Shown here one piece after another: positions 34,590-57,716 of a DNA stretch of 64,000 bases (position 1 is the first letter of the stretch; each line of letters starts with the position of its first letter). The position numbers and the translations under genes were made by a program. The stretch is from Marsupella aquatica (Eukaryota > Plantae > Marchantiophyta): assembly GCA_973895155.1 (NCBI GenBank), contig OZ316895.1, forward strand, positions 9,722,184-9,786,183. The letters are read 5' to 3'. The notes beneath the pieces are model-generated. The model saw nothing but the letters and a program-made list of their open reading frames with translations, was not told where the DNA came from and did no database searches.

Positions 34590-34615
34590 AACCCCAATTT
34601 AAGGAAAACCGAACT
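34590..34615 (+). repeat. Left terminal inverted repeat
   Basis: AACCCCAATTTAAGGAAAACCGAACT; 23/26 identity to the reverse complement of 57691-57716. Looser similarity (AATTCCAA..CTAAATATTAT) continues for about 40 bp inward. Confidence 0.9.
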
Positions 34616-34957
34616 TTGGAAATTCCAAAAATACCTAAATATTATTATTTTAATATGACAGCAATTGCCTGTCAACGCTTCCGATTACCACGCTTAAAAA
34701 ATGACAAGAAAAGGGGGCGACATGACGCGTCGCTGCGCGTGATACCCTGAAAATGACTGCAACATCACATTTTAACAACACTAAGATTTGACGCAATCCA
34801 ACTTGACGGGACCAACAGACAACGAATAATAAAAATAGAGAAATAAATCTTTGAGATCCTTTATATATGATAACCCGTTTAGGGAGATTACAAATAGTTT
34901 CTAGCACGACAATACCAATGGGGAGTTTCTCTTGCCGAATATTATTTCGGAAGCGTC

Positions 34958-35651
34958 CTAAACTGGGCGTCTGTTAAACTGCTCTACTAGATATCTATCT
35001 CCATGCCTCTGAATCAAAGGGTCTTCCCATATAGTATGATTATAATCATAATCTCTAAAAAGAGATTTAACTGACCAATCAGGATAACCTATTCCATTGG
35101 CAACGAGAAGCGGCTCAGAAGATTTTGCGAGCTTGCTAAGATACGGAATCAACACGTTAATCAGGAAACAGTCGTCGATCGACCCAAAATATTTGGGCGG
35201 AAATAATGATCCAAAAACAGGATCTAAACAAGCACGAAATGCATCGGATTCGATAAGCATTATATTTTTCTGCAGATACATCTCCGTATAACTTTCAACT
35301 TTATCAAAACACTTCAAAAATATCCGCTTATTTGAGGTCGCCCCATCGCATAAGTAACAATGAGACTCATCCCAAATATACTTAAATGAGGCCATTTCCA
35401 TCGCAGTAAAAATAGACGCTAAAATCTGATCTAAAAGGTTCTTCTTAACTAAGAGATGACCAGATCCCTACGTCGAAATTCTCAAAACAGAATCTCACAA
35501 ATTTGTGAAGCTAAGGCCTTGGAAAAACGTATACATTCCCAATACGAATTCCAGTTGAGACCACCATCAGTCGGGAATGCGGTGCAGTGTAACAGAGTAG
35601 ATGCTCCACATCTAAAACTATGAGCTGAGTTTCTCTGCTACAATGTATCTC
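34958..35651 (-). pseudogene. FCP1/SCP(NIF)-like HAD domain, copy 3 (one stop and one frameshift)
   Basis: After the acceptor at 35652 it reads QLIVLDVEHLL..VFPRP*LHKFVRFCFENFDVGIWSS, then FKYIWDESHC..IFLKCFDKV..NIMLIESD; collinear with copies 1 and 2. Confidence 0.75.
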
Positions 35652-35744
35652 CTGTAGAGAAACACAATACAAGATAAATGAGCCTGTGTGGATGTTGCCA
35701 CGTGAATAGTCGCGTCACGGATTTACAGACAAATAACATATCCT

Positions 35745-36452
35745 CTACACTCTGGCCTTTGATAAGTGACGTCTGTTGAAGTACTTCATAAGAACTTGAT
35801 CAGCATGTCTCTGCACGTACAGATGCTCCCATATATCTTCGTTCAAAGTCCAATCTAGATGTAGATTTCTAATCGACCAGATGGGATAATCCAACTTGTT
35901 AGCAAACGCAAGACAAAGCCCGGAATCTGATAGCTTCAGTAAATGTGGAATGAGAGTATCCCTAAAAAAGACATCATCCAAGGATCCTTGAAACGTCTTT
36001 GTAAACAACAATCCACATACACCTGTCTGGCATGTATGGGATGGACAGGCATCAATCTGGATTATATTCTCTAATCGATAATCTTGAAACATATCACGTA
36101 GTCTGTCCATAGATTTGAAGACAACTCTCTTATAACATTTCTTCACATAACCAAGATGCCAGCAATGATCTTGGGTGAAAACATATCTCAGTTGCGACAG
36201 GTCCGTGATCGACAACATTTCTGAAAGTATCTGATAAACCAGTTTATCCTCGAGGGTAGACCAAACCATCACATCAAAATTATCATAACAGAATTTTAGA
36301 AAATCATGAAGATATGGCCTCGGAACGACACATAGAGATCCGATAAGAATTGCCGTAGTCCACTTGAGCTCAGGAGTATATTTCTTAATATAGCATAGAA
36401 AGTTTTCCACTCCTAAAACTAGAAGTTGACGCGATTTGCTCCACTTAGTCTC
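35745..36452 (-). CDS. FCP1/SCP(NIF)-like HAD domain, copy 2 (open exon; catalytic Asp missing)
   Basis: After the acceptor at 36453 it reads QLLVLGVENFL..VVPRPYLHDFLKFCYDNFDVMVWST..VFTQDHC..VFKSMDRL..ENIIQID. Confidence 0.78.
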   Translation of the reverse strand, partial: ETKWSKSRQLLVLGVENFLCYIKKYTPELKWTTAILIGSLCVVPRPYLHDFLKFCYDNFDVMVWSTLEDKLVYQILSEMLSITDLSQLRYVFTQDHCWHLGYVKKCYKRVVFKSMDRLRDMFQDYRLENIIQIDACPSHTCQTGVCGLLFTKTFQGSLDDVFFRDTLIPHLLKLSDSGLCLAFANKLDYPIWSIRNLHLDWTLNEDIWEHLYVQRHADQVLMKYFNRRHLSKARV

Positions 36453-36722
36453 CTGTAAATCAACAATTCGATTCTCATATTAACCCCTAAACATAACACA
36501 CAAATTTTAAAAATATAAGTAAACGACGAATGTTTACCCGCGCACGGTCGCGTGACTAATGTATCCATAGTTCAATTCTCATATTATGCAATCAATTCAA
36601 CCACGCCACCCGACACGATACTCACATAACAATATAAATAAATCCACACAGCGACGCGACCGGGCGCGTCACTCACAACACAAAGTCAAAAGTATAAATA
36701 AGAATTATAAATAAATAAATGT

Positions 36723-39517
36723 TTACTTTTCTTTGGCTTCCATTTCACGGTCTTTCCTATCTGATAATATTCTCATGAAATCGTCAAACTCTCGTAAATG
36801 GTCAGGATTACCCTAAGTACGAATGGTCACATTTTTCCTCCAAAGATTCGCCTTATCAATATAATCCTTCTGAAGATTGTCTCGAGAAAACTCTGGAATA
36901 CCATATCCCCGAAGTCGCTCATGGAATTTCAACTTCGGATTGAACATATCGCACAGATACGGATATAGTTTTTTTTGAAAATGTGTGTCATCTTCCAGCC
37001 CAAAATACACGTCGGGATACACAGACGAGTAGAAGCTATTTAAGCTCGTCTTATAAGCAGCATCATCCATAATAATCACATTCTCCTTGTCGTAATTGTA
37101 AGTAGTGGGTAATTCCAAAAGCATGAAGAAACTAAAATTTTTAATTTTTTTTACGGTGTTTAGACTGCAATTATTGCTAACTGTAACTGAAACAACATTC
37201 AAAGTTACTAAGTTCCTAAGTTACGAGTAAACTCAGTTTACGAGTTTACTAGTTCACTGCTTTACGAGTTTACGAGTTACGCCTTAAGAGTTGGCGACCC
37301 TGTGATCGTGACATCTTACGACTAGTTCAACGTGACTCCACAATGGATGAAGAGCTCACCTTGAAAGGGAAGGAATGCAAAGACATAGGCGCTCATTACT
37401 GACTTCTCTTCCACCTTACCTCTCAAACTCTGGCCAACTTCAACCGGTACTTCAGAGATGTCAGATGGAGACTTCGACCTTTCTATTCCAGGATGATGAA
37501 TAGTGATAAGTTCCTGTATCATTATCCCCAAGTGTATGCTGCTACCTGTAACAACTATGATGTGATCGGGATGTACAGAGAAGCTCTTCGTATAGATTCA
37601 TGTTATTTGATGAAGAGAATGCCTTTGATGTATCCTGAGAGACAACTGAGGTGCCTACCTTACTCTAGAGGATTCCCACGCCAGGCTGAACTAATGGAAG
37701 TTACCCAGAATTGAACTGTCACGGCAGTGGAGCTACTCGAACCAGAAGACATCCGACAACAAGCTTGAGTAGTCTACGTCTTTTTAGTTAGTTTTAAGAG
37801 TAGTGCATCTTTCCCTATTTTTCAAAATGTGTTATAGAGCTGTAAAAGCTATGAGACTTCTTCAATAGGTAGTCTGTACCTAGGAAAACCTGCTGGCAAA
37901 ATTTCAGAGTTTTCCAGACCAAGAGTAGAAAGTTAAAAATAGTTGAATTTGCTCAGTTTTTAAGTGTACCGGAATACGCTTTTACGCTATACGTTTTTAC
38001 GTTTTTACGCTTTTAAGGGTTTACGGGTTCATACTTAGCCACTTTTCTAGCTTTTCACTTACTGAATTGCTATTTTGACTTTTTGAGGAGTATGAAGAGG
38101 CATGTCTCTTCGACCCTATGACCTCTCACTCTGTAGATTTTTACTATAAGACCTCTCCACCACTAGTGTAGTTTATGGTTAAGTTATACATTTTTGCCTC
38201 TTCTTTGTGTTAAACTAGTTGATCATGAATCTATGAGTTCGAGATCAGGTTTAACATTTGGAGAGACTTACCTCCTTCTTGTGTTTTTATCTATGATTAT
38301 AAACACAGGAAGTAAAATTCCTTTTGTGCAAATCTTTTGAGTTGTAATGACAGATTCCTTGTTGGTGACTCATTGCAATCTCTTGATTTCTTAAAGTTAA
38401 CTCATTGAGTTTAAGCCTTATTGAAATTGATGGATTTTCTTTCATGTTGCTTAGTACCATCTAAATGTTGAAGTAGTCACTCTTTTAGATCTTGTCTGAG
38501 TACCACTTAGAAAGAAAAGACAAGATGTGTTGACGGCATTTTAAAAGGTACTCTAGTAAGCATTTTAGAACTGAAAAGCAATATGGATTTGAATCCTTAA
38601 GTCTTTTCATTTTGACTTATGTCTAAGGAGCAACCTTGGTCAATTCCAGACTCCCTAAGTAGCATACTTTAAGATATTTTCTCTTGTGTTTTGTTAATCA
38701 TTCCTTTTTCATTAATTTATGTTTACATGATGCTGAGATATCATTGAAAACTACTCACCGCTGTGGAGCGATCTTCAAAATACCTTATTAAAGTAATCAA
38801 ACTTGATTACTATGTGTGGAAAACATTTTTAGTTCTTTATTATTGTTTAAATCTAGTAAACCAACCCCATCTTGTTCTTTACGGGAACGAATACCGAGTT
38901 TGAAGACCTATAAATGTGTTTTTGGTTCTTCATAGCAAACTACAATAATCCTTAATATCGGTGGCAATGTCGGAGAGACATTTGACAAATAGGGGAATGT
39001 CATTATTACTCTTACCAATAGGTCGTGTTGATTCTTGTCCCCAGATAAATTTAATATGGCTCAAAACCTCGGGTCGGAGAATCAGCCTTACACATGATAG
39101 AATATTTTGTTTCAACATACACGACCAAATGACAATGTCGTAAAGTTCTGACACCTTCACAAGAAATGTCATTAAGTCAGGCCTTGGATAGAAAACCTTG
39201 TGCATGTGTTTGACACCCCTTGACCGAATAGGCATCCCAGGGCTGCTTTGCTCTGACCAGATAAGTACCCGATTCAGGTCAAAAATTACAAGTCTCTTCA
39301 TTCGAATTACCGGACCTTTCTGTACCGGTGGCCTCTGCGCCGATGGATTAGGCGTCGTCTGTACCTGTGATTTCTGTGCCGAAGGATTTGGAGCCCGTAC
39401 TACCAAGGTCTTTCCCGCCTCCGGGAAATCAGCGGACTTCAGGATTGGTGCCTTCTTTACTGGTGCCTTCTTTATTGGTGCCTTCTTTACTTGATCAGGG
39501 GGTTTCGGGCTAGGTTC
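36723..39517 (-). pseudogene. FCP1/SCP(NIF)-like HAD domain, copy 1, split by a solo LTR; spliced to the Ulp1 exon
   Basis: KRLVIFDLNRVL..YPRPDLMTFL..YDIVIWS..IWGQES..LFVKCL..DIKDY joins in frame to DKENVIIMDDAAYK once the LTR and one TSD copy are removed. In-frame TAG at 36813-36815; the next stop is TAA at 36723-36725. Confidence 0.82.
37097..38944. mobile_element. Nested solo LTR (1848 bp)
   Basis: TGTA...TACA termini with flanks GTAAT/ATAAT (5-bp TSD, one mismatch). Removing it restores the HAD reading frame. Confidence 0.88.
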
Positions 39518-39603
39518 CTGTAAAACATTATAAAATGAAAAATAAGTTTTATAACGCGAACGGTCGCGTGACTATAAAGACAGACTGAAATGAAGTATAA
39601 TAC

Positions 39604-40395
39604 CTGCCCAAGAAGATGGTCGTTCAGCAATTGAATTCCGCCGGCAATGTCAATCATAGTAGCACGTATCCCGGTACCATGGTTGTCTCCGGACGCCGGC
39701 TTTCGGAAGTCCATGTCATATAACAACAAGACAACTTCCCTACGGAATTTTGCAATGTCTGCAGCGGAGAAACTAATTTCGCTGCCTTGGCACAAACACT
39801 TGGCGTATTTCAACGTAAAAACACCACAACTGTACCCGTCACTTTGGTATGGAATATCGTTCCGATATATCCGTTCCCAACCTGATATATCCACCTTGAC
39901 TCCATTTCTCCATAGAATTTTGTCGACGTAATACTGCCCAACGACATCGAGCACCTTAGGATTTTGTCGATTTTGAACTAGAGAATCCAGGTACTCGAAT
40001 CGTTTCTCCTTCGAATAGACAACTGCCAATGACCAATGTTCTTTCCCAACAATGTGAACTGGAAAGACTAGTTTTTCGTATTCATTGATTCTTAACGGAA
40101 AGTCAACTGTCCAAGATGCTCGGTCCTCATCAAAAACGGTAGGACCCATGGAGAGAAGCTCGAAATGGTGTGTTTGGAAGAATTTTACAACCTCTGATTT
40201 TCCAACTCTATTGAGAATCAACTCGATAAAGCTCAAATAAACATTAATTATATCATTGGTAAGCAACTCGCGCGGTCTCAAACACATCATATGTTTCCTC
40301 TTGATCGATTGGTGTAAAAACTTGGTCAATACCTCTTCCATATCCCTAGAAGGATCGAGGCATTGATCTATTTGACTACCCAAATTTTCAAAAAA
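39604..40395 (-). CDS. Ulp1/SENP-type (peptidase C48) SUMO-protease exon
   Basis: LRPRELLTNDIINVYL, LVFPVHIVGKEHWSLAVV (His), EYLDSL (Asp) and YQSDGYSCGVFTLKYA (Gln, Cys). Bounded by an AG acceptor at 40396 and a GT donor at 39603. Confidence 0.92.
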
Positions 40396-40579
40396 CTGCA
40401 AAAAATAGAGAATTCAATACGCCTTCAAATAACGTACTAAGGTTGTAGCCTACGAGTAAACAGAAACAACAATAAATCAATAATAAAATATAATGACAGG
40501 TCCAAAATCCTAACGACAAAGAAAATACTAGCTGCTAGACTAGAAACAAAATCCTTTCAACTTATAGCTTGCGAATGAC

Positions 40580-42604
40580 CTTTGGATTGGGTGGATCCGG
40601 CCTTTTTGCACCGGATTTCTTGGGTGCCTCCTTCGCAGCTATATTGCTAGGAGCTCCCCGGGAGCGCAGTGATCGATCCACCAAACCGGTTTGTGAAGGT
40701 TGGAGAGATGAGGCGGGAAGACCTTCGAATGGTTGTGGTAGTTTATTTAGGTATTTGACCATCTGTGAGTCTGACAAATCAGGTTCCGCAATATCCACTT
40801 CGCTAGTCTCCGGTTGGGCTTCCGAGTGTGTCGTCTCTGGGTTATATCATGGCCGAGACCACGAACCCGGTCGTGTGAAGTCAGACTTTAGTCTCTTCAC
40901 AGTTTGAGCGGATTCAGAAGCCAACTCCGTTCCCAGTTCTTCCACTCGATTCTCACAAAATCGTACATTATTGGTAATTATCTCTAGTCTCGATTCACTT
41001 GCACTCGTCTCCTCTGTAATCAGAACACCCTTCCAGTAATGCACAGCCAAAACTGCCTGGACACGTAGCAGCTCGGGTGAATATTTATTCCAATCCTCCA
41101 AGGAGACTGTACCTAATGGTGGATCGTCAAACTCAAAGTCCGGACGCAGAAAATAGTCTAATATTTTCTTCTTAATTCCAGCGGACGGCGACGAAGGCTT
41201 CCTCAAATTGAGCTTTATTTTAGGTAATCAGTTTGCCTCAGGAATAAGCGAAAGGGCCCTGGCCTTCTCGGCCTCCTTCTTTGCCTCCTGCTTCTCCGCT
41301 TGTTCCTCCTTCTCCGCCTGCTCCTCCTTCTTCTCGGCCTCCTTCTTCTCAGCCTCTTTCTTCTCAACCTCTTTCTTCTTTGCCTTCTCAGCCTCTTTCT
41401 TCTCTGCCTCCTTCTTAGCCTTCTCAGCCTCCTTCTCAACCTCCTTCTTCTCAGCCTCTTTCTTCTCAGCCTGCTCTTTCTTCTCAGCCTCCTTCTCGGC
41501 CTCCTTCTTCTCGGCCTGCTCCTTCTTCTCGGCCTCCTTCTTCTCGGCCTTCTCAGCCTCTTTCTTCTCTGCCTTCTCAGCCTCTTTCTTCTCTGCCTTC
41601 TCAGCCTCTTTCTTCTCAGCCTAGCTCCTTCTTCTCGGCCTGCTCCTTCTTCTTGGCCTCCTTCTTCTCAGCCTCCTTCATCTTCTCCTTCGTCTTCTTG
41701 GCCTCCTTCGTCTTCTCGGCCTCCTTTTTCTTTTCGGCCGCCTTCTTCTTGTCGGCCGCCTTCTTCTTCTCGGCCGCCTTCTTTTTTTCGGCCTCTTTCT
41801 TTTTGACCTCCTTCTTTTCAGCCTCCTTCTTTTTGGCCTCCATCCTTGCCTGCGCCCTCTCCGCTTCCGCCCTCTCCGCCTCCTCCCTCTCTGCCTTCAT
41901 ATTCTGTGACTCTTCTCTCTCCTCCTCCTCGCTCTCGGCCTCCTTTCTTGTGGGTTCCTCCTCCTCGCTCTCGACCTCCTATCTTGTCGGTTCCTCCTCC
42001 CCGCTCTCAGCCTCCTGTCTTGTCAGTTCCTCCTCCCCGCTCTCAGCCTCCTCTCTTGTTTGGCCCTGCCTCCTATCCTCATCCACCCTGTCGGCCACTT
42101 CTCTCTCTGCTTCAACCGCGGCCTGGACTCTCGCTACCTCTGCCAATGCCTCTGCCTGAAGTTTGGCTGTCTCAACTCTCTCCGCTTCAGCTCTTGACTT
42201 CCTCTTTGCGGTAGCTGCCTTTTGAGCTGCCGCCTTCTGCTTCTTGGCTTCTACCTTTTGAGTCTCTTGTCGGGACGCTTCTAGTGTAAGTGCTTCTTCT
42301 CGGGCCTCCTCTTGTCTCACCGCTTCTAGCCGGGCCGCCTCCTCCTGTCTGGCCTCATCATCCACATCCTCCATGTCTTCGCCGGACCCTGTTGTATCCT
42401 CGTCAGTCCCCTCGTCAAATTTATCAACTTGCTGATATTCATCAATTTCATCGGCTTCCTCATTGTCACTCTCTTTTTTGATTTGGTCATCATCATCGAC
42501 ATCGTTCTGCGGCTCGGTCATCCAATCTGGATCTTGGTCGTCATTGACGTCCCCATGCCTGTCGTTCACTTTGTCCTCACCAGTAAAGCCACTTTGGACT
42601 TCAT
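40580..42604 (-). pseudogene. Acidic plus K/E/A-rich coiled-coil exon of the cargo gene, disrupted
   Basis: A D/E-rich stretch, then many AEKKE/AEK repeats. In-frame stops at 41979, 41228 and 40847, and a 1-nt insertion near 41622 (GAGCTAGGCT versus the repeat unit GAGCAGGCT). Confidence 0.75.
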
Positions 42605-42999
42605 CTGACAAAAATAAAATATATAAATAAATATAATACACAGTAAAAACAATGTTCACGCGTATGTTTGCGTGAAGCTCAACAATGTTTTGTTATGTAG
42701 AAGAAGAAATTGTTTAGGGTTTGATAGAAATTTACCTTGGATGGCCCACGAGGGTACTCTGTTGGCCAAATGTACATTCTATCTGAATCTTCCGAGAGGG
42801 AATACTCTTGCAACAATTGATAACAAATATGATCAGGAATATGTTGTTCTTGGAGGACTTCCAAAACATCAGCCTTGAGAGCAGATATGGATGGACTTCA
42901 TTAGTTTATCTATACATTTTTCTGTACTAGCCCGTACTGGGTCAATCAACGACAGCGTTGTATCATTCATCGCAGTGGTGTGTTGTAGGAAACAAGACA

Positions 43000-44462
43000 A
43001 TTCCCCGTGCGTTGTTACGGGGCAGTAATATTTTACATTGGATCCAGCATCCTGTAAAATAAGAAACAGAAATTAGTTTGACCAATATAAATTGATAGTT
43101 CAAAATCCAAATCATCTGAAAAGCTAAACCCCACAATGTAAATCTAAGAACTTACCATTAGGCACTGGATCAAATTCTTTCCTTCGTCGAAGCATATAGC
43201 CCATTCTCCAGATTGGACGAATTGACTAACAATACTTTCAAAGAATGGAGGCATCTTTTCTGGCGAAGTCGTCGATATCTCGCCGCTCTCTTCAAAATCA
43301 ATTATTTTCTCAATCCGATATTTGGACAGCAATTGGAGCTCAAAGACATCCGAGTCGCCCATTGTGCTGAAGGCCGAGATGTGAAAGGCGTATGTTACAA
43401 TAAGCTTCCTTTCCTTTTGCCGCTTCTGAATATAATTGCTATCCACAGCAATGTACTGTGTGTATTTCACTAATTCCCGTTTGATTAAATAAGACTCAAT
43501 GGGAGTGGCCACAATAATAACCACATGGTGTGGTTTAGCCCCTATTTTGCTAGTAGCACGGAATAACCCCTCATAGAATGCGCAATTTGACGGACGCATC
43601 GCTCCCATTGATGAGGAATCAAAATAAATCAAGCTTGCAAGGTTCTTCTCTTCACGTACGTGATACAGTCTGCAAACCCAACATTTTGTATATCCTACAG
43701 GGATCGAAATATCAGCCTCTCACCGACCGGCCGCACTAGTTGGTTTCCTTGACTATCAACTGATTTCTGTATTCCTTCCACCAACCTGTAGAATATCGGG
43801 TCGATCTCTTTCAACAAATTATCATTACTAATATTTACATTTAAGCACTTCTTCAGATAACCACTCAGCGCATCTCTCAGCTGCTTCAGTACCATCTTGT
43901 TGAGCTTAAAGCAATCAATCATTCCTTGGACCCGCAATTTCCGGGCGGCGTTGGTAAGACTTTTCAGCTCGGCCCGGGTGCCTGTATCCCCGTTGAGTTT
44001 ACTCAACAAAAGAATCTCAAACTCAACTTTTGTCTTCTTCTCTACACAGAATTCCTCCAAACTCCTGCCGCTTGTTGACATCACTAGGGCTTCAGAGGAC
44101 TTCCTAGCCTTCACGGATTTCACTTTGATGCTTCTGTTTTTGAGAATAGACAATTTCCCACTCAACATGTACTCCGCTGTCTTTCGAAGAACTTTGTCCG
44201 AGCACCCTTGACAAGAACGGAATGACTTCTTAAGAAGATGAAAAGCATTTGGATTCTTCGCAACCTTGAGGATCTTCTTCTGCAAAATTCCATTGTATAT
44301 AACAAGCTCTCCTTTCCTTGAAAGTTCATAAACTTCCATCCACTTCTTGAATGTTTCGTCCTCCATGGTAAAGAGGAACGGAGCCAACTCTCCAAATTTC
44401 ATTACCTCGTTTTTGCCCATTTGCACCCATGGGCAGACTAAACTTGTAGCCCTCATAAATAC
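43000..44462 (-). pseudogene. Central cargo exons, including a degenerate amino(N6A/N4C)-methyltransferase-like region
   Basis: ORFs 43695-44489 and 43144-43632, with GT-AG introns 44463-44628 and 43052-43155 in frame. LASLIYFD...EKMPPFFESIVSQFVQSGEWAICFDEG..CLMDAGSNV follows beta-class MTase motif order but lacks DPPY and FxGxG. Confidence 0.45.
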
Positions 44463-44628
44463 CTGGAAAATGAGATAACAAAGGAGCATAACAATTCTAA
44501 GATTGACGCGCCCAGTTGCGTGACAAAATTAACTTCATAAATCTGTAAGAAAATGTAATGCATATATCTGTAAGACAATGTAATGCATAAATCTGTAAGA
44601 ATATAATCGACAAGGGTTTGGTCCATAC

Positions 44629-45830
44629 CTTCCAATTAGGATGACGAGAATGTGATCCAGGCCGACCAAATGAGTTCCATATATTACGACACTGTCTGAC
44701 GATGGTGAGAAATTGCCCCTCTTCCATGGATGTTTGATGACAGTGGTTTAGGGCCCTTGATAGTCCCATCAAATGTATATTATTCTCGTTATTGAGCGTT
44801 GCCCAAAACATGACAGCTTCTACTGTCCTGCATGCATCTCGAACATCTTGGCTGACATTAGCGTCGTCTTTCAGCAATTTGTAGGCCATTATTGTGTGTT
44901 GGCCTCCGAGTATCCAAAAATGACTTCTCTTAATGTCCTCCTCTGTTGGCGCTGATTTGTAGGCCGTTCCATTGTAGTCAGCAATTTCGTCGGCTTCAGA
45001 CTGAACCCACTTTATAGGGACTAAGAAGCAGCATCTCTTCTCAAACTTTATAGTTGAATGAGAAAGGAGTGAATTCTTCAGCCTCTCAGTGTAATCCTGA
45101 TTCCACTCTCGGCATTTGATGTGATCTGGTGCTGTTAAATATGTTCACAACACTATATTCCTTGAGGAAACTATCGAACAGAGCACCGACATTCTGTGCG
45201 GTGATAACTTTTGGAAGATTCTCCGCCGTGTATGTTTCAGCCTCGGTCACTGGAATGGGCTTTCCCAAGCGAAATTCCTTCTTGAAAGGAATTCTCTTGA
45301 ACTCAAGGACGTCAATAATATATTGACAAATCAAATCACCAGTTAATCCCCGTGGATTGGAGGGGTATCCCACACTAGTAACCTTTTCCAAGGTGTGTCT
45401 AGCACCTAGGAGATCATCGATTCTCCTCTGATTGAAGGTCACATATTGCGTGCGATCCAAATATATGCTGATGTTGTCATCTTGGTTATCGTCGCTGACT
45501 AACAGAACCAATCCCTCAGTACACTCTTGAACACTCAAGTTCTTCTCAAAGAAGCACCCAAGAATTTTTGAATTCTCCAAAATTGTAGCCTTCTCATTTT
45601 TTGCAACCACAAGACGGAGACTCCCATTCTGAACAATTATTCCAAGTTTGGTTATCTCTGTCGAGTCAAAGAGATGGAGTGTCTTTGTCTCCGTTGTTCT
45701 CTCCCTGATAGATCTTCCTCGATAAGCAAGAATGGATGTCTCCGTGGGCATCACTCTGGTCTTGGCTTTCTTTTGAGCAACCGATTTAGAGGAGTCTCTT
45801 TTTCGCTTTGATGTCACCATTGGATCCATT
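44629..45830 (-). pseudogene. Cargo exon with a basic NLS-like start and a ParB/Sulfiredoxin-like domain (1-nt frameshift near 45116)
   Basis: Starts with SKRKR..KKAK. Correcting one extra A joins ORF 45086-45829 to an open frame reading HQCREWNQDYTERLKNSLL..FLVPI..FWILGGQHTIMAYKLL..LSRALN. Confidence 0.6.
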
Positions 45831-46029
45831 CTGAAAAATACAAATATTGAAAGTCAAACCTTTATTTCAGAATGACAATACGCGCATGGTCACATCGCGT
45901 CGAATTACATTTTAGGAACTAATCAAACCGAATGGTTTCTTTTCTTGAGGTCAACTCGTCAAAATCTATATCTATAAATAACTATGCGACTGAAAAATTG
46001 AAGCACGCGCATGGTCGCGTCGCCCCAAA

Positions 46030-46635: not shown

Positions 46636-46756
46636 ACCTTTCGACTAGAAGAAGTCGCTCTTCTTCATCTAAATAGTCATATCTGTCACTAAATAATAAC
46701 ACGTCGCCGCAACTAGTAGTCCCAAGAATGGGTATTTCTAGGAGCAGAGAGATATC

Positions 46757-47161
46757 CTATCGAATAACTCGATAGACTGAGTCAAATTCCAAATCCTCAG
46801 TCTCGGGTATGTAGGAAAGTGCGTCATTTGCGTTATCGACCATCCGATTTGCTTGTTTTAGGCTAGCCCATAACTTGGTATTCGTAACTAGAAAGTCCCA
46901 CTTCTTGCTACACGCTCCAAGCCGGATAAGGTCTCGGACCCGAGCCACAACCAAATCGTTTTTGGTAAGTCGATATCTACTCAATCCTTGAATTGAAATA
47001 AAGTATTCGTATAATATTGGCCATATTCTCGAAATGACCAAAACATCTGGTAATCCTCCTATGAGACTAGAGGAGGTTTTATCGAGCATGTCCCAGATAT
47101 CTTTCTGTTCCCTTTCATGAGATGAAAGAAAATCTTGAGCCAGATTGAGGAGTTCGCTCAT
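46757..47161 (-). pseudogene. F-box-like repeat 2 (the TAG at 46757 looks premature)
   Basis: LIGGLPDVLVISRIWPIL...LIRLGACSKKWDFLV. Paralogous sequence (KYPFLG; FSDRYDYLDEEER) continues beyond the stop. Confidence 0.68.
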
Positions 47162-47222
47162 CCTGTTGTTATCAAATCACAAAACATTGTTAGAAGTTGT
47201 CTCACGCGCCCGGTCACGTATG

Positions 47223-47771
47223 TTAACAACTAGCATTTAGGTCATCCTCAAGGTACCCAACTTTGTGGCATCTTATTGTAAACTGCCATTTTTCAACTGG
47301 GTGAAGAGCATCGTAGGTCTTCGTAAATAGTTCTCTAAGAACGCTGGACATCGACCCCAGGAATTTAATTCTTGGGTATTTCTTGAAGAAACTTTGCACA
47401 GTCGATGAGAGAGACTCATTTGGGATCGATTTAGCAGTATGTCTTGGGAAATCTAAATCTAATAAACTCAACTTGATTATACCCAATAGATAGGTATTAC
47501 CAACAAGGTGGCGCCATCTGCAACACATCGAAGATAGTCCAATCAACTCATTCAATTCCTTTGTTGAGAAATTTCCTGCATTAGCCAAGCAATTAAAAGA
47601 ATCCTTGATTCGAGGCCAAATCAATTCCGCGACAATGTTATCTGGAAGTCCAGGTAATAGTGTCTCAACAAAGACAGAATATCCCTCCATTAGGCCATCT
47701 TGGGTTTTGTCGAGAATGTCAAATATGGGGCAGAGATATTTGAAGCTCTCAAGACCAGGTTCCCCCATCAA
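47223..47771 (-). CDS. F-box-like repeat 1
   Basis: LLPGLPDNIVAELIWPRI...LIGLSSMCCRWRHLV. Confidence 0.7.
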   Translation of the reverse strand: MMGEPGLESFKYLCPIFDILDKTQDGLMEGYSVFVETLLPGLPDNIVAELIWPRIKDSFNCLANAGNFSTKELNELIGLSSMCCRWRHLVGNTYLLGIIKLSLLDLDFPRHTAKSIPNESLSSTVQSFFKKYPRIKFLGSMSSVLRELFTKTYDALHPVEKWQFTIRCHKVGYLEDDLNASC

Positions 47772-48033
47772 TGAACCTCTATTTTGATTTGTGATGCGAC
47801 TGGTCGCGTCAAATAATCAAAACGTTTCCTTCGGTCACGGAACTAACTATAAGAGGTCTAACGGGCATGCGACTGGTCGCGTTAACTGCACCTAACATGC
47901 GACTAGTCGCGTCACCTAATCCTCGGAAATCTCTAAACCTCCCGTGTGGAGATCTACCTCACACGCAACTGGTCGCGTCAAAAGATAATCCAAAATTGAT
48001 CGAACAACAAACCAGGAGTAGTCACAATATCGA

Positions 48034-50708
48034 TTGATACCTGTACGGACTGATAAATCCAAATGCGAACATGGAATTATTAAAGTGAGATACATTCATG
48101 CAAAGATATATTTATTAACTGGATTCAGGCAGACCAGTATTGAGTGTATTCATTTAGATAACAGGCGATCAATGGGATTCATTCATAATTATAAGCAATC
48201 ATAACATTCATGAAGTTTCCAATATTACTATTCAGATGTTAGCACGCTATGATTGTGAAACAATCATATGTCAGAAGTTTTCATATTGCAAAGAATTCAG
48301 TTTAGCATGATTCACAGAGCATCGGTCAGTTAAAATTATTAAATTGTACAGGTTGCTGCTGGTTGTTGAGTCGATTGATATGATTCAGTGTAATATAATA
48401 AGATGAGTCAATTGCACAGCCTGGAAGTTGTATGACATCGTTAATATGATCAGGTTATATTTGAGTTGGCTTGTATGATTCAGTCATATTTGAGTTTACA
48501 GACATAAACTGCATCAAACTCAGCTTAATGATCTGTAGAATGATCTCAGGAAAAGTACCTGAATTCTGACAAATTGATCGATGTAATTGATCGATGTAAT
48601 CGTCTGAGAGATAGAAATTAATTTCCACTTAAAGACCTTGCTGCGGCATTCCAGAAAGAACGTATAAGATTGAAATCCCATATTGATGTATTAAAGATAG
48701 AAGCTAAGCGAATATCTCGAGGTAAACAGTTCTTCCACTAAAATTGCAATCAAGGCGGCAAGGAACTCACGATCTCGAGGTAAACAGCCACTTCTAGAGA
48801 TAGAATCATACGCTGTCGGTAGAATGTTGAGAATGAATTAAAGCATAAACCTGATCAATGAAAGAGCTGAAACAAACTTGATGAATGAAACGATCTGAGA
48901 CAGGCTGCCGAAAATGAGTTCGAGCTGCTGGAACAAGCTAAAATTTGCTGGTACAAGCTGATACGAGCTTATACGAGCTGATACAAGCTGAACACGAGCT
49001 GAAACTCTCGCAACTTCAGAGCTCCAAACAAACAAGTTGTGACGAACCCAAGAAGCCCTTCGAACAAACCAGAAGCCCTTCAATTGAGCAAACAAGAAGT
49101 GAATATGAGATGTGAGATCGAGCTGAAGCGCGCCAACCACCTCCGGACCACAACAAATGAGAGCTCCTGACCACAATGAACGATCGAGCTTCGGACCACA
49201 ATGAATGAATGATCGAGCTCCTGACCACAATGACCGAGCTACAACAAACGAAATGGGGCGAACGAGAGCAGGCACGTGAAGGTCCTATGGAGCTGGCGCG
49301 GGAGACAACAACAATGAACGAGAGAAATGACAAGAAGTGAACAACAATGAACTCGAGACCGTGTGCGCCGTCACTAAGTAATGCGAATTAGGATAACCAT
49401 TTTAACATAACCCTAATAAGCCTACACATCCTACGGATCAAAAGGTTCCGGATGATCTCCGTACACCTTCCTAAGACTCAATCAGTACGAAGTAGGCAAT
49501 CGTGAAAAGAAGATTACCGGAATCTTCTTGATTGGCCGTACTCAACGAGATTTTAGTTGGATCGCCAATTTGAAATTTAAACCGGTAATTATGCAGTTGC
49601 GATAGATTTTGGTAGTGGAGACCCCCGGATCCGGATCCATATCTCCACTCTCTACATCATGCCAATTCAAATTTGAGTATCGAGCCAATTGAAATCCAAA
49701 CTCCTGGATAACGTAAAAAGATTCTCACGATCGGAGTGAATCGATATTCAAAATCAATCCATTTTGGAAGTGGACAATACCAGATCCGTATGTCCACTCG
49801 CACGTTGAATAGCAACTCAATTCAAAACTCAAGAAAGTATCGTGCCAAATCCTAATTCCTGAACAACATACAATGATTCTCACGACTGGAGATTGAATCA
49901 ATTTTCAAAATCAAAACCAATCCAGATGAACACATCCTTCATGGAGTCAGACTACTCTCATCGTTCACGGATCATTCTTCATTTTCAGTTTCTCCTGACT
50001 AGCGGAACTCTCAACGGACGCTGATCCAAGGAAAATTTGAGGTGGAGCTCATTGGATCATTCGACCATTCCAGCCAGGGCGGGGCTCATGCAAGCAACTC
50101 AGGCGCAGTTCATTGTATGACATTCTAGGGAAGGGCTCAACCGACCCTAGCGTAGGAGTTCTGGCGGAAGCGAGACGACAAAGTTATAGGATCTCTATAG
50201 TCATCCTCGCTTATTCGGAGCATTCTAGTGGACCAACAAAGAGCGGCTAGTTAGAAGGCACTTTCTGTTCGAGGATTTTGATCTCGATACGATCAAGAAG
50301 CTTTTATTTTCTGGTTGAGGCATTCGGTCTGGATACAATCACGATACTCAAGGCAATTGGAGTCCGACGGAAGGTTTGCGAGGAGCAGGAGGCTTGGCTG
50401 GGAGGAGGGTTATCGCCATAATTGCTGACGAAGACAACACGCAACTGAACATCTTGTAAGTACGCAATTCCGCAATCAATGACGAGATTAATTGCCTTCA
50501 ATCACGCATTTAATTCATGATTTGACTCCATGAAGTTCTGGTCGAATTCAATCACTCCTCAATCAAGTCCAATCCAGAAGAAATCTATCACCATGAATTC
50601 CTTCTATGAAGTACTATGGTAGTCGTCGATCAAAATGAAATCTTCGCAGTCCAAACTAGTGTGTCTTCCAATTTTACATGGTGGTACATATGGGTATTTT
50701 AACATACA
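48034..50708. mobile_element. Probable nested insertion (~2.7 kb, LTR-like, non-coding)
   Basis: Flanked by ATCGA direct repeats (48029-48033, 50709-50713); begins TTGATACC and ends ATACA. Has internal GAGCT-rich low-complexity repeats and lacks the dyad motif that clusters on both sides. Confidence 0.55.
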
Positions 50709-51439
50709 ATCGACTCTAGCGAATTAGCCATAATTTACTTTTATATTGAAAGTCTTCGTTTCATCACGCGCCTAGTCGCGTGATTGTTTTAGAGGAGAGG
50801 ATATACTCTCCACTCTTAAATCTAATCGCGCTCCATTTCTGAGATCCGATTAATCTCTATTTATTAGTTACTTTACTTAGTCATTGAGTAGAACTCCACG
50901 CGCACAGTCGCGTGACATAACTGACCTCAGGTCAAATTCTCTCAAGAATTGAAGCCAATATCTGTTCGTTTACCGCCTTGTTTGGGGATGACGGGCACGT
51001 TCCCCATTCTGGTTGACTGACCACGCGCACAGTCGCGTCATTCTTCCTGCTGTATTCTAAGGTAATATAGATGTAGTATAGTATCACTCAAGCCTCTGTT
51101 ATTTTGATCATTAGGAAAAGACTCTCAGCCCTAGGTGGTCTAAACTGACTTCATTCAGATGAACCTAATTATTCCAGACGCTAGTAAACATGCAAGGCAT
51201 TCCAAACATACATACATGGAGCACTATTCATGGATTTAATACCCAATCTTGTTCACAGTGCACGCGCACAGTCGCGTCAAAATTATTGTTGTCTTCTAAG
51301 GTAATTTAGATATAGGATCGAATCACTCCAGTCTTAGCGGTTCTCGTTGTTGACTAAGAAGCCATCTTGAGAATCATTTCAACAAGAATTCACTTCATTC
51401 AAATGACTTGAATTATAGTAGAAGCCAGAAAACATAAAT

Positions 51440-52217
51440 GACCATTCTGGAATATTTTTTCGTCGATTACCAAAAAAGACTACATCCATCCCGAAGGACT
51501 TCGAATGTGGAATCCATTTCCATTGAACTGATTCCGTTAAAATATATCCCTACGGGATTAAATCTAGCTACATCGTATCCCTACCGAGTTCTAACTTGGA
51601 CTACGTTTTACTCAAATTCAATAAGCTCTAGCCTTACATCGAGTCAATCATTCCACGAAGATGGCATCCACTCATCCGTGTCTGGCGTGGATTCGCCAGA
51701 ATCCAAGAATGCCTCCTTTGCCCAAGCTCTATGGTCCATAAATTTGCGTGCGTTGCTCGGCTTCCTCCTTCTGTAATACAGTTCACAATCTTCCTTCATC
51801 TCTAATTTCCTTTTTGTAGTTGCGTCCACGTTCTTGGCCTCCTTCTTGACTTTCTTAGCATCAGCTGCTGCCTTGACCGTAATAGAATCGACGCGTACTT
51901 TGGCCTTCAACTTTTCCCCGGATTCCATCTTTGGATTCGACACGGTTGGATTGCTCTCCATCTTATCTTCCGTCATCAAATGTGGCGAACAGTGGGTTCT
52001 CACAAAAAATTTGACCTCTAGATGTAGTCACCGCAAACATGATATCACATCGCTTACACAATCTGAAAGGAGTACCACGATAGATAGAATCTTCTGCATT
52101 GTCTGTTGGAACATCCACATTCTTCAAGCTCACCGGCTTAGCCATCCCTTCAAGCAAGAGATGCGGACCGAGACTAAGAATTTGGAGTGAGAGGAAAGAC
52201 TCTTCTATTGGGAGCAA
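51440..52217 (-). pseudogene. Decayed first ORF/exon of the leftward cargo unit
   Basis: Overlapping ORFs 51963-52217 (CKRC..C) and 51644-52003 (K-rich) run on into stop-interrupted coding-like sequence. No family recognised. Confidence 0.4.
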
Positions 52218-52344
52218 AGGAAGGGAGAGCTGATGTGCGATTACATTATCCAGTAACCAGAATGTTCAATGCATGGGGAATGGGCAGTTTAGACATCATC
52301 TCAATGCTTTATAGTCTTTACTCTTCACTACTGTGGATATTGTC

Positions 52345-52527
52345 AATTAAGTGGCATGAATGTAGGGCGGAATCTAGGTTGGTTTCTAGAAGAGAGTAAT
52401 CATCTATCAATTCAGTGGCACGGATGTAGCGCGGCATGTAGGATGGTTCTACAATAGAATAACCGTGTGTCAATTAAATGGCACGAATATAGGGCGGAAT
52501 CTAGGGTGGTTTCTCGAAGAGAGTAAA
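52345..52527. repeat. Three diverged ~60-bp tandem repeats in the divergent spacer of the transposon
   Basis: CAATT(A/C)A(G/A)TGGCA..(A/G)AT(G/A)TAG(G/C)GCGG..T(C/G)TAGG.TGGTT occurs three times. Confidence 0.75.
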
Positions 52528-52714
52528 CGTCAGACTGGCGCGGAATAGAATTGGCTGCAAGCTAAATTGTCGTATAATTATGGCTTTAATTTCACTGTCG
52601 GCGACTGGCCCGGAATGTACTGATTGTTAGTGATGTACTGGAATGATTATGGGGTTCTCAGTAGATACTGACTGTCGAGTGTCCACTCAGTGGTACTGTC
52701 CACTCAGTGGTGTA

Positions 52715-53322
52715 TCTTATTATAAATTGCAATCATATCTTACTTATGAATCGCCAACTACGAGCTAGAGTTTGGGCCTAAGCTTCTAGCTTCTAGGTTT
52801 TAGACCCTATGGGAAATAGGAATCTATAATGTTGAATCGGTCATGGGCTAGCCTAAGGGTGTCCCACACATTTTCAGGCTGTGTCCACCCGAACCTAACT
52901 CGGGCGACTGCAAAACTCTCCCGGCCCGATATTTGAGTCCCCCAATAGGAAAACCACTTCACGCACAGCGCCGCAACACAACTCATTGCTAACTACCCCA
53001 GCAAATATTGGCCCGAGTATACCTAGTTTCGGCTGCCCATAAGGTCAGATTTTTCCCCATATCTGAGACGCCCTAATAATGCTTGTGAAGAGGTCAGTCG
53101 TGTCATTGAGGGTCTCCCCCGTGTCTTTGGCAAGGGCCTCCCACTCCCGTGCCTTCATTATGGACCCCCCCTTGGGATATATATTTTTGAGCGATGCGTC
53201 GCCCTCCCCTCGGTCCCGATGCGCTCGCTCCTTCCTCTCGCCCTCCGCTCCATAAATGGCCTGGCCCGACTCCTTATGGGCCGGCCCTCCTTGCACCCTA
53301 CAACGCACGAGTATAGGGCTTG
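52715..53322 (+). mobile_element. Nested non-autonomous Helitron-like element
   Basis: Starts A|TCTTATTATA (less certain) and ends ...CAACGCACGAGTATAGGGCTTG|T. The 3' ~75 bp match the reverse complement of 13066-13140. Confidence 0.58.
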
Positions 53323-53518
53323 TTCCACAATAGAATGTTACGGAAGAAGCATGACGCGACTGGTCGCGTAATGGATTGGTTCATACGGCTACTAAGTCCT
53401 CAAGAAGCATCACGCGACAGGTCGCGTGCAGTACTTTGTCCTTACTTTGGTAGTTGACGGCCGTGACAGGACAGCACGCTTATAGTCATATTCGCTATTG
53501 TGCAGGATCATAATTAGT

Positions 53519-56500
53519 ATGGTGACATCGACAGTCTGGATCAGGGAAGGCGGACAAGTTATTATAGGCATCCGTGAAAAACAAGTTGGAAAAGGTCGTG
53601 TGATAAGTCTTGATCCTTCCAGGGTTTGTCACAATGTCACATAGTTCTTCTTCTATTGGAGGAAGTTTTTGACGAGACTATTCAATGCCGAGATGGCAAA
53701 CTTTTGAAGGACATGATTGGGGGCTACCTTGTATGGGAAAGGAATCAACTTTTTCAAGCTCCCATGGAATCGGAGGATTTGTTTGGCGAGGTTGGTGATG
53801 ATCAAGATCCAGTTGAGAAAAATTATGTTGGGAACCACCATAATGAGAGTCGGTCTCGTGTGGAAATAGTTTTACCAAAGGCCTTGTGGATGGGCATGCC
53901 TATAAAGGTGGTGGATGAGAACAAGTTGATTTTTGCAGTGGCAACTATACATGTTCTAGATCCTATAGTCAAGCTTGGGGATGTCACCCTTGGGAATACA
54001 CATGTGGGAATTCTGATCAACAATTTTGTTGAGGGAGCTACGGTTGACCATCTGAAGCATAGAGATTGCTTAAAAGCTTGGTCGATAGACCAACTCATTG
54101 CCAAGGATGGCAACTTGTTGTCTTTCCACAACATTAGGCAAGAAGTGGGAGGGAACACATCTCCTACAAGTGGAAAGCGGTCCTACGTCCATAAAACTAG
54201 AAAAAGAAAGAGTCCATCTTCCCAGACATCTAGAAGAGACACATCTCTGGCACGTCAAGATGTGTTGTTGATAAACACAAAGGACTGTTGTAGTGAACAT
54301 TGTTGCCAATATTTGGACCGCAACTTGGCTATGGCAATTAGGCAAAAGTGGTGGTCAAAATCTTTTGCGGAGCGCAAGGAGGAGGAGGAAATCAAGGCTA
54401 TAAAAAATACAATACACTTGGGTACGGGCAAAAGGATTCTAGTAGTGGAGGGCAAAGTATTGTGCTTGGAGGCATGGAGAATCATTCATTCAAGAGGAAA
54501 GACTCAATTTTATGCCTTGAAGACGACTATGATGGCTGGAATGAACATAGGTACCCATGGTAATGCTGGAAAAAGGCGTATGTCTGAGAAAGTATCTCAA
54601 GCATTCATGTCAATGAAAGAGATTATTGAGGAGGCAGCTGATCATCATCCAGCCAAGTTGAGAACCATGGTAGATAATTCAAGGGTGGATTTGAGGGAAT
54701 TGCCAACCAATCTTACTTGGGAGAATATTATAAACAGGGTTAATGTTGGCAACAAGGAGGCTGGTCTTCCTCCAATTTCCCAACCCACCTTGAGTCATCT
54801 ACATCAGATGTATTTCAGGGAGTTCTTGCGTCACAAAAAGGGCAACAACTTTTCAAAGTGTACAACTTGTAGTGAGTTGCTTCAACGGAAAGCAAACCTT
54901 ACAGGAGCTAAGGAAGAGTTAGATTGCCTAAGGCGTGATGAGGAGGAACATCACCAAGACCACACACAACAAAGAATGTGCTATCATACCTGGAGATATG
55001 AGTCCATCCATCGTCCAAAGGAAGTGTTATGCCTTATTCATGATAAGATGGATCATTCAAAGACATCTCTCCCAAGAATGCCCTTCAATCCTAAGCATGT
55101 GGATGGTGCCCAAAAGTTCCCAATTACTGTCACTGGTATCCTTACTCATGGTCATGGTCCCAAGGCCATAGCCCAATATCATGTTGGAGTGTGGCCAGGT
55201 GATGTCAACGTCACTATTGGGTCAATTGATTCAATACTAAGGATGTTGGAAAACCCAAATCTAATGATCAAATCTCTTGTGGAGGGGCCAGACTCGACAA
55301 GTCTTTTAATTTAAAGACCTCCTTTTTGGGAGAAAAGATATCTTGGAGGCAAGTGTCCTTAGAGCATTTGAGGATGACATTGCCTACATCTCAAGCCTAG
55401 GTACTTTACTCACAATCCTTTTATTATTAATAATATAAGCTCACACACACTAACACTCTACTTTATGTAGTTGTTGCTCCTCCTAGCCAAGGTTTCATTA
55501 ATAGGATTTAAACCCTAAACCCTAAATTGGGGTTTAGGGTCTGACTAGGGTTTTATTTAAAAGCATTCTGAGATTGTTACATTGTGATGCAGCACCCGAG
55601 GCACCAAAGTTCAGGCCCCTTCCACGAGTATTGAAGCTACAACTGGATAATTGTGCCTCAGACAACAAGAACAGATATACGATGGTTTATTTGTCATTGT
55701 TGACGGCAAGGGAGGTGTTTGAAGAGGTTCATCTTGGTTTTATGGTGGTTGGGCATACTCATGAGGACGTTGATGGTATGTTTGGGCATTTTTTAGAGTC
55801 TATGATGCATAACCCCACATACTCATTGCCTGAGTTAATGTCCTTGTTCATGAGAGCAAGGACACCCAATGTAGTCCCACATTTTCTACAGGAGGTCCCA
55901 GATTTCAAAAACTACTTAGCTCCATTCATGTTGAAGGGCCTTGAGGCATTGGTGGGGCATTTAAAACCCAGGCTGTTTAGGTTCTATGTTCGTCATGATA
56001 GTATGCCATGCTTCCAATACAAAATGAAGTCAACTGATCAGGGATGGTTACCCAAGGAAGGTATTGAAATGTGGTCATGGAAAGATGACAAAAGTCCTCA
56101 CATCCCAATTGGGGTGCCCAAACGGCTACCAATGATGGAGTTGAAAATGCTTCCTGAAGTGCTGACAGGGTTGAAGAAGCATGTGTCATTCTTTGAGTTT
56201 ATTCTAAAGCGAACAAAAGAGGAAGAACCAAAGTGACGTTGGACAACTCTCATCAATTATTGGAATGACATTGTAGATACTCTACAGGGTGAGCAGGTGC
56301 AATATGAACCTGAAGGTGCACACAACTTGGAATACGGGTTTTGGCCTTTATCAATATGGAGAGAGCACGTTCCACCAGAATATCAAAATGTGGCATGTGA
56401 GTTGGAGGCAACAATGGATTATGTGGGACCAGCAAAAGATAAACCTTCTGAGAGTTTTAACCCTAGGGTTGATGTTGTGAAGGGCTGTTATGTGTTGGTA

Positions 56501-56881
56501 CGGCCGGACGACTCAAACCTGGATGTTTATCCCGTCCATATGGGGTTAGTTGTTACAGATGTGGTAGAAGGACCAGTGAATGAACAAAACCTTCTTACTC
56601 ATGTATGTGGCGTTGAGTGGTTTAGACCATTTATGGCAAAGAAGCAACGTGGTCAATCAAACTGGTAGCCAAGAGAGCGGTGGGCAGATTCTTGGGATAA
56701 AAAATGTGAACGTGATCCAACTCCAATATACAAGGAAGCTAAGACAATAGATGTTTCCTCTGCCTTGTGGTGTTTCAAAGCACGCAAAGGACCAGTGACA
56801 GGGCTGGTAGGAATTCCAAAGAATGTTGCTGCCAAGGCAAGAGACTATCTCTTGACATGCATAGCAAGTGACAAATCCTAG
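53519..56881 (+). pseudogene. Sola1/DUF7869-type DDD transposase (about 1,050 codons reconstructed; intron 55401-55592)
   Basis: Cys-rich DCCSEHC..VLCLEAW, then FSKCTTC..H, CLIHDKMD (D1), LQLDNCASDNKN (D2) and FMVVGHTHEDVDGMFG (D3). Frameshifts near 53640 and 55309; in-frame stops at 56234 (TGA) and 56666 (TAG); final TAG at 56879-56881. Confidence 0.87.
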
Positions 56882-56976
56882 ACAATAATGAAGCATGTAG
56901 TTTAGCATACAGTTTAAAAGGCAACTCAGAATAGTAGTAGCCAGAGAACTCAAGTTTAGACAAGTCTTATCGTCTA

Positions 56977-57499
56977 AGTTAGTTAGTTGGTTAGTTTATT
57001 TAAGATATAATATTAGTTAGTGGGGCCTTAGTTTGGTGATATTAAGGCATGATATTATTGACATTCAAATGAATGTCCAGTAGACATTGTAATATACAAC
57101 AATCCTATTAATAAATAATAATTATAGTTACACCTTCAAGTGAACTCAACTTTCAATGATTTCTGATTTGATATGGTTCCATGCCTGATTGAGTCAAAGC
57201 AATAGAAACTAACTAATTAAAGGGTGATATGATTGTAGGTCACGCACCCTGGTGCGTGTCAATCTTTTTTTGTATTCAACCCTATAGTAATTAAATAGAC
57301 AAGTTAGTTAGTTGGTTAGTTTATTTAAGATATAATATTAGTTAGATAGTGGGGCCTTAGTTTGGTGATATTAAGGCATGATATTATTGACATTCAAATG
57401 AATGTCTAGTAGACATTGTAATATACAACAATCCTATTAATTGTTGTAAAGAGTGGTCAATCTTTTTTGTATTCAACCCTATAGCAATTAAATAGACAA
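56977..57499. repeat. Internal duplications in the transposon's right arm
   Basis: A ~135-bp block TTAGTTAGTTGGTTAG...CAATCCTATTAAT at about 56979-57112 and 57304-57441. A ~43-bp block GTCAATCTTTTTTGTATTCAACCCTATAG.AATTAAATAGACAA at about 57258 and 57456. Confidence 0.85.
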
Positions 57500-57690: not shown

Positions 57691-57716
57691 ACTTCAGTAT
57701 TCCTTAAATTGGGGTT
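57691..57716 (-). repeat. Right terminal inverted repeat
   Basis: ACTTCAGTATTCCTTAAATTGGGGTT, followed by ATAT. Confidence 0.9.

Follow-up and report, generated by a model that had tools for sequence, protein, structure and literature searches.

Contig OZ316895.1 (assembly GCA_973895155.1) carries, within the 64,000-nucleotide stretch analyzed here (the window), a Sola1-like giant DNA transposon whose introns and spacers contain 21 copies of a short, CpG-rich dyad motif. These dyads are tentatively interpreted as parS-like sites for a ParB-like protein encoded by the transposon itself, with anti-silencing as the outcome of binding. A first-pass annotation of the window had proposed a dimeric, element-encoded binder. 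The fixed 6-nt spacer of the motif, its independently varying half-sites, its confinement to the element, its retention in a sister group, and the presence of a ParB-fold exon among the cargo genes are all consistent with that proposal and lead us to predict binding itself.

The annotated sequence was present at all 21 listed start positions, and 18 of these copies differed by no more than three mismatches from ACGCGACNNGTCGCGT, while those at 42658, 45880, and 57242 showed four. A scan of the element (34590–57716) at ≤3 mismatches yielded 19 places, which corresponded to the 18 listed copies and a place at 34715 that overlaps the copy at 34725. The same scan yielded no place in the 40.9 kb outside the element, in agreement with the earlier observation that full copies do not occur beyond the terminal inverted repeats (TIRs). 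In dinucleotide shuffles (n = 60), the mean number of motif places was 0.08 and the maximum was 1. Pairs of ACGCG and CGCGT occurred ten times with a gap of 6 nt and once with all other positive gaps taken together. The conserved block was longer than previously noted and extended over approximately 20 bp (TSACGCG-N6-CGCGTSA). When the window was ranked with a symmetric 20-bp position weight matrix (PWM; 24 bits), the 21 copies occupied the top ranks, followed by a position within a coding exon (40861, 12.9 bits), with all others at ≤7.4 bits. Since the two weakest copies, when excluded from PWM training, reached comparable scores (12.6 and 13.3 bits), this weak 22nd candidate (40861–40876) may represent one missed, decayed copy in coding sequence. 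Deviations within the ACGCG halves were CpG transitions in 12 of 13 cases, as had been suggested, and the perfect 7-2-7 palindromes reported at 53354 and 53412 were found in place; the copy at 57242 is a perfect 8-2-8 palindrome. In viral sequences, the 20-bp pattern was found in two contigs, with one match each and no second copy within 3 kb, and these matches were attributed to chance.

In 16 copies both outer positions are C or G, and in 8 of these the two positions were paired. Half-sites therefore vary independently, without covariation, which favors contacts with protein over a hairpin, and the RNA-hairpin interpretation was dropped on this ground. The inner halves differed, with AC in 7 of 21 left and 17 of 21 right half-sites (p = 0.004, duplicates uncorrected). 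Half-sites thus hold one polarity along the element, which may reflect descent by duplication.

None of the 21 copies overlapped an exon model that was drawn with the motif known and was based on open reading frames (ORFs), Pfam matches, GT/AG sites, and the homolog P0083; non-coding DNA makes up 26% of the element. The claims that copies lie outside coding sequence and that most cargo introns hold one were thereby supported: seven cargo introns contain a copy, and copies are missing from the transposase intron and from approximately three further cargo junctions. In each of the seven introns, one copy ends 36–53 nt from the acceptor. Upstream spacers account for ten copies and the vicinity of the element ends for two, and neither TIR contains a dyad half-site. 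The reported absence of copies from three nested insertions could be maintained for the insertion at 37097–38944; for the remaining two, convincing ends were not found.

These positions bear on two alternative explanations. Action of the motif in RNA, either as an intronic hairpin or as a splicing element, is very unlikely. The acceptor distance in 7 of 7 motif introns and the polarity of the halves would suit it, but the introns are short, which constrains motif position in any case, compensatory pairing was absent, no Rfam family was matched, and the copies in upstream spacers and near the ends fall outside introns. Binding by the transposase, which would then regulate its own element, has a slight chance of being correct. 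The two best copies are situated immediately upstream of the transposase, as are the dyads of a distant locus described below (L006), and cognate copies of AtMu1 are bound and activated by its transposase (10.64898/2026.08.24.746577). However, AtMu1 binding was at TIRs, which lack half-sites here. Moreover, most copies reside in cargo introns, and the combination of inverted repeats and a ParB gene is likewise seen with an unrelated EnSpm transposase (10.1101/2025.02.11.637652).

Tandem duplication explained the pairs 45880/46005 and 51023/51262 and the cluster at 47794–47963, and did not extend to the solitary intron copies, whose flanks have nothing in common (mean identity 10.9/40). That local duplication left all copies behind as relics without function is hardly credible: some clusters are indeed plain tandem duplicates, but the solitary copies lack common flanks and the CpG-rich word survives both in a sister group at approximately 14% divergence and within a CpG desert.

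The transposon spans 23.1 kb, including nested inserts (Table 1). Its ends read AACCC…GGGTT and are flanked on both sides by ATAT in this single insertion; a TATA register fits as well. Its TIRs begin with AACCCCAATTTAAGGAA. The only Pfam match of the transposase was PF25273 (DUF7869), and its relatives showed 62–72% identity. An AWWT target-site duplication (TSD) is a hallmark of Sola1 (PMC3845634). Based on the AACCC/GGGTT ends, the ATAT duplication, and the DUF7869 transposase, the element was assigned as Sola1-like. Judged by its stops and frameshifts, the copy in the window is dead. The first NIF/FCP1-like domain is interrupted by the nested insertion at 37097–38944, which was bridged by contigs of three runs.

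For the ParB-fold exon (44632–45138), no Pfam match was found, and its Atlas neighbors included ParB_N and DUF3723 clusters. Among its 28 homologs, the sole one filed under a eukaryote species name came from the liverwort Calypogeia fissa (30–34% identity), and another was filed under an archaeal metagenome-assembled genome (MAG); the host is thus probably bryophyte-like. An AF2 model of the window exon (pLDDT 84.8) matched PadC (Z 6.3), KorB (Z 5.9), and SerK (Z 5.3), and 7 of its 9 top VIA matches belonged to the ParB/Srx family; Foldseek returned no match below E 0.001 for this model. The model of an intronless homolog, P0075, matched KorB with Z 9.2 (rmsd 2.6, 94 aligned) and PadC with Z 8.5. 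All eight of its top matches were ParB/Srx-family proteins, and its best Foldseek matches were KorB, Noc, and ParB. These models indicate that the cargo exon carries a predicted ParB/KorB N-terminal fold, which the first-pass annotation had not named. Homolog searches with the helical exon and with long full-length forms were empty, ParB-like pieces retrieved nothing or noise from PDB and phage sequences, and scans of viral sequences revealed no relatives of ParB or of the transposase. A metagenome-scan match, L001, was rejected as false, being in the wrong frame of a bacterial urease operon. The Atlas model of P0083 was unusable (pLDDT 0.35).

The possible methyltransferase-like region following the ParB-fold and helical exons gave no Pfam, PHROG, NCBIfam, or PDB match for a methyltransferase domain. 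An initial 4-sequence profile was uninformative; with a 28-sequence PF01555 profile, P0083 ranked 1 of 1001 against shuffles and the window exons were not significant. Neither [DNS]PP[YFW] nor FxGxG catalytic motifs occurred in any minus frame, and DPPY was not found. Because the region consequently looks catalytically dead in sequence, a role as reader or scaffold is more likely than base-writing.

Part of the region was recovered in 5 of the 6 listed runs, and more than half of its words in four, under two organism labels; one of these runs may be the source. Contigs, whose depth does not equal copy number, separated into a 99%-identical group and at least one deeper group at approximately 85–87%. 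At site 47204, the divergent group has ACGCGCTTGGTCACGT and the window ACGCGCCCGGTCACGT (14/16 identical), while only 1 of the preceding 7 nt matches. Near the left end, divergent contigs rejoin the window at 34709, 16 nt before the motif. The suggestion that the ancestral motif was tighter held in part: the A at 47216 in the window is G in the near-identical contigs, but the divergent group also has CACGT at this site, so that this variant is tolerated and does not simply represent decay. At 47163–47196, the 3′ end of the intron is more similar between the sister groups than is the adjoining exon.

With the motifs masked, CpG:GpC counts differed between the cargo arm (457:494) and the transposase arm (44:133; p = 6e-9); the flanks gave 413:739. 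A sharp step in CpG observed/expected ratio occurs within the element, from 0.6–1.2 (34590–53400) to approximately 0.0–0.5 (53600–57716). CpG retention in the motif-rich arm fits its long-term protection, and the copy at 57242 accounts for two of the three CpGs in 56880–57716 (837 bp). These data also bear on the possibility, which we consider unlikely, that the ParB-like protein does bind the dyads but functions in repression, like KorB, or gives structural order to the 23-kb transposition complex. In its favor, the best fold match is to KorB, a protein capable of long-range silencing (PMC11790492), sites cluster before both divergent genes with one near each end, and CpG retention is not clearly site-local. 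On the other hand, protection is the better fit for a CpG-rich array that extends through the introns of an arm in which CpG is retained, and the TIRs are without sites.

Outside the window, five further loci with DUF7869 were inspected. At one of these, L006 (G001:C41, 2966–11564), a ParB-like ORF is oriented head to head with a DUF7869 transposase. Its 589-kb contig is intron-split and animal-like, is filed in a bacterial MAG, and is likely host contamination of that MAG. The ParB-like ORF, despite a weak score, reached a profile E of 0.015 among 736 ORFs and ranked above 2000 shuffles. Two exact ACGTG-N6-CACGT dyads (CACGTG-N6-CACGTG) are located within approximately 140 nt upstream of the likely transposase start, a placement that matches that of 53354 and 53412; these dyads may be host E-boxes. 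Two L006 exons aligned in order to the PF01555 profile (P 0.04–0.09), a weak resemblance to an N4/N6-methyltransferase end. No convincing ends were found for the L006 element. In the short DUF7869 contigs L002–L005, dyads were absent at ≤1 mismatch, as were ParB matches. PF25273 was detected in 1 of 51 genomes around G001, the plant ParB profile gave nothing at E ≤ 0.1 in G001–G003, and a relaxed dyad pattern was not enriched across G001 (72, control 94).

In the proposed mechanism, the cargo ParB-like protein would bind each dyad as a dimer and thereby mark the element as self, and bound protein would keep the cargo arm and both promoters unsilenced. Sites would be carried by introns and spacers because coding DNA cannot host them, and clusters would have arisen through local duplication. 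The bound protein, perhaps spreading, would oppose methylation in the manner of VANC proteins (discussed below), perhaps assisted by the deSUMOylase, phosphatase, and F-box domains encoded alongside it. We infer binding, dimerization, spreading, and the chromatin effect alike.

Several observations weigh against this mechanism. CAMTA-type boxes have the consensus vCGCGb or vCGYGb, which 13 and 17 of the 42 half-sites fit, respectively. A host factor (CAMTA/CG-1 or another CGCG/ACGTG binder) binding dyads that were collected to drive element expression is nevertheless fairly improbable: the L006 sites, which are paired E/G-boxes, would agree with it, but most half-sites do not match the box, the 24-bit fixed-spacer dyad is absent from the 40.9 kb of flanking host DNA in this one window, and the element shows no enrichment of single vCGCGb boxes (0.30 versus 0.24 per kb). 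The arginine of the GxxR box is responsible for CTP binding in ParB. Of the 28 homologs, 10 lack this stretch; in all 18 readable ones, as in the window exon, the arginine is replaced by T or S (G-[QM]-H-[TS]), and in KorB the R117A exchange abolishes binding (PMC11790492). This replacement makes a CTP-gated clamp doubtful. The region after the ParB N-terminal domain, which three sequences cover, was modeled with pLDDT of approximately 30–60 and gave no ParB-type match; a helix-turn-helix within it would be a prediction from position.

The conservation and composition data add to these objections. In the 47204 intron, the one compared base by base, 6 of the 7 nt after the motif and, about equally, the 34 nt beside the acceptor are also kept, so that this intron alone is no proof of a special motif. 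Divergent contigs jump over unalignable DNA and land on motif-bearing pieces (36654–36678 and 47949 onward), which would speak for the motif, but these pieces measure 25–28 nt and joints with sides of <30 nt are often spurious. Within the cargo arm, CpG retention was not clearly local (rho = −0.21, p = 0.08, 70 bins), the motif-free stretch at 48045–50690 is CpG-rich (CpG:GpC 107:107), the surroundings of the 57242 copy are a CpG desert, and a different origin of the cargo arm would give an equal CpG picture. The 2.6-kb stretch at 48045–50690 contains short tandem repeats and is likely an insertion, for which no ends were found. At L006, the dyad pair may derive from one duplication (p ~0.04), and the similarity of its downstream exons to the plant exons was not significant. 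As a single locus with a weak profile score, L006 therefore represents a lead.

A wider generalization is possible but unlikely. According to it, giant eukaryotic transposons recognize themselves by a code taken over from bacterial ParB/parS systems, in which a ParB-fold dimer would load at intron dyads, spread, and deliver deSUMOylase, phosphatase, and F-box domains, either fused to it or co-encoded, against silencing, with an ACGYG-N6-CRCGT geometry common to plant and animal Sola-like elements.

Other features of the element and its surroundings were recorded separately. Between two motif clusters, 51438–52265 contains short ORFs of 100–137 aa, one of them K-rich, which are possibly another cargo gene; three of them were scanned and gave no Pfam or PHROG match. 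An 83-bp segment at 53241–53323 is an inverted match (82%) to a repeat outside the element at 13065–13147. The copy at 57242 is surrounded by a near-perfect duplication (56976–57499; 325-bp spacing, 141 bp at 96%). To the right of the element, an inverted pair at 58263–60428 (26-nt arms; 380 bp at 67%) is possibly another TIR element. To its left, the window contains nested, MITE-like inverted repeats at 25891–26413, including 53-nt arms at 92%, an intronless host 6-phosphogluconate dehydrogenase gene at 20444–21916, and a reverse-transcriptase fragment at 7840–8958.

Table 1. Coordinates of the Sola1-like transposon, its genes, and its dyad motifs in the window.
Feature	Coordinates	Strand	Match
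Complete Sola1-like DNA transposon	34590..57716		
Left TIR; first 17 bp identical to right TIR, imperfect beyond	34590..34645	+	
Dyad near left end	34725..34740		
Two NIF/FCP1-like phosphatase domains and a third by eye	34958..39518	-	Pfam E=2e-7, 1e-9
Dyad in predicted intron, acceptor ~35652	35700..35715		
Dyads 36538 and 36654 in predicted intron 36487-36726	36538..36669		
Nested solo-LTR-like insertion, TG..CA, GTAAT/ATAAT flanks, motif-free	37097..38944		
Dyad in 86-nt intron 39518-39603, between Ulp1 and NIF exons	39554..39569		
Ulp1/peptidase C48 exon	39605..40397	-	E=3e-21
Acidic and K/E-rich repeat coding region, internal stops	40562..42605	-	
Dyad in predicted intron 42605-42735	42658..42673		
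Possible degenerate N4/N6-methyltransferase-like region	42736..43670	-	weak hints
Helical region following ParB-N; DNA-binding domain predicted by position alone	43675..44462	-	
Dyad in intron 44463-44628, directly after ParB-fold exon; P0083 spans junction	44506..44521		
Cargo exon with ParB/Srx-fold domain (predicted) at 44632-45138, frameshift near 45140	44629..45831	-	
Dyads 45880 and 46005, 125-bp tandem duplicate, in predicted intron 45831-46033	45880..46020		
Three related F-box-like exons	46035..47770	-	two sub-cutoff Pfam E=6e-4, 3e-3; third by eye
Dyad in predicted intron 47163-47256; 14/16 in divergent group	47204..47219		
Four-dyad cluster 47794, 47867, 47897, 47963, immediately upstream of cargo ORFs	47794..47978		
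Four-dyad cluster 50766, 50898, 51023, 51262; last two a 239-bp duplicate	50766..51277		
Two perfect 7-2-7 dyads, immediately upstream of transposase ORF	53354..53427		
DUF7869 (PF25273) transposase, one intron ~55300-55592, stop-interrupted	53614..56880	+	Pfam E=9e-36
Variant dyad near right end, perfect palindrome	57242..57257		
Right TIR	57658..57716	-	

VANDAL transposons, which the first-pass annotation had cited as precedent, belong to the Mutator family. This precedent remains useful as an analogy: in both cases, short motifs occur in introns, spacers, and terminal regions, tandem amplification applies in the window to some of the copies, and VANC proteins bind motifs in VANDAL introns and spacers (VANDAL21/VANC21 and VANDAL6/VANC6; PMC5735166, PMC10398659). 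It does not extend to the machinery, since the window element has a DUF7869 transposase with a 4-bp TSD and no VANC-like match was seen. VANDAL motifs are 8–9 nt long and non-dyad, with binding and demethylation demonstrated, whereas for the window dyads both are predictions. More closely comparable are giant transposons with ParB genes from brown and red algae. Sola1-1_Ec32 of Ectocarpus (21.5 kb, AACCG-CGGTT termini, 4-bp TSD) carries, on the strand opposite its transposase, a gene for ParB and an N4C/N6A methyltransferase, with proposed self-binding and self-modification (PMC12477816). It shares with the window element the giant size, AACC-type ends, 4-bp TSD, and opposite-strand ParB-like gene. 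Its methyltransferase is recognizable, whereas the corresponding region in the window is at best degenerate, and the window element, in a likely land-plant host, adds Ulp1, NIF, and F-box-like exons. In the text searched, that paper names no target motif, and its main text contains no instance of ‘palindrom’. Plavaka elements of Bostrychia are 17–19-kb DNA transposons with a ParB-like protein, PAG3, for which inverted repeats were proposed as target (10.1101/2025.02.11.637652). Size class, ParB-like accessory protein, and inverted repeats are thus shared with the window element; however, the transposase there is of the EnSpm/Plavaka type, PAG3 includes a fused putative 2OG oxygenase, and its repeats form tandem arrays beside the ParB gene rather than single dyads dispersed through introns. 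The ParB/parS, KorB/OB, and Noc/NBS systems similarly combine a ParB N-terminal fold, predicted in the present case, with dispersed palindromic sites on their own replicon (PMC11790492). The window differs from bacterial ParB in its replaced GxxR arginine and its intron-split, eukaryotic transposon context, and no ParA-type ATPase was found among the 29 element ORFs scanned, with shorter ORFs only partly covered.

ParB accessory genes on giant transposons, with proposed self-binding, have thus already been published for Ectocarpus and Bostrychia. Literature searches, which left most subscription journals outside their range, found only these two papers on ParB-carrying giant transposons and no paper on DUF7869, on DUF3723 with ParB, or on ParB CTPases with DNA transposons. 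In their available parts, the two algal papers propose ParB-like self-binding without a defined target site, and the Bostrychia preprint describes VANDAL as the one transposon for which binding and modification of its own sequence are known (10.1101/2025.02.11.637652). The novelty here lies in a defined candidate target, dispersed and carried by introns, in a Sola1 element of a likely land plant. With a sharply defined 20-bp candidate site next to a gene of ParB fold, the algal self-binding proposal becomes directly testable. If correct, the interpretation would reveal a second, independently evolved plant anti-silencing code with a prokaryote-type reader, which might be of use in targeted epigenome editing.

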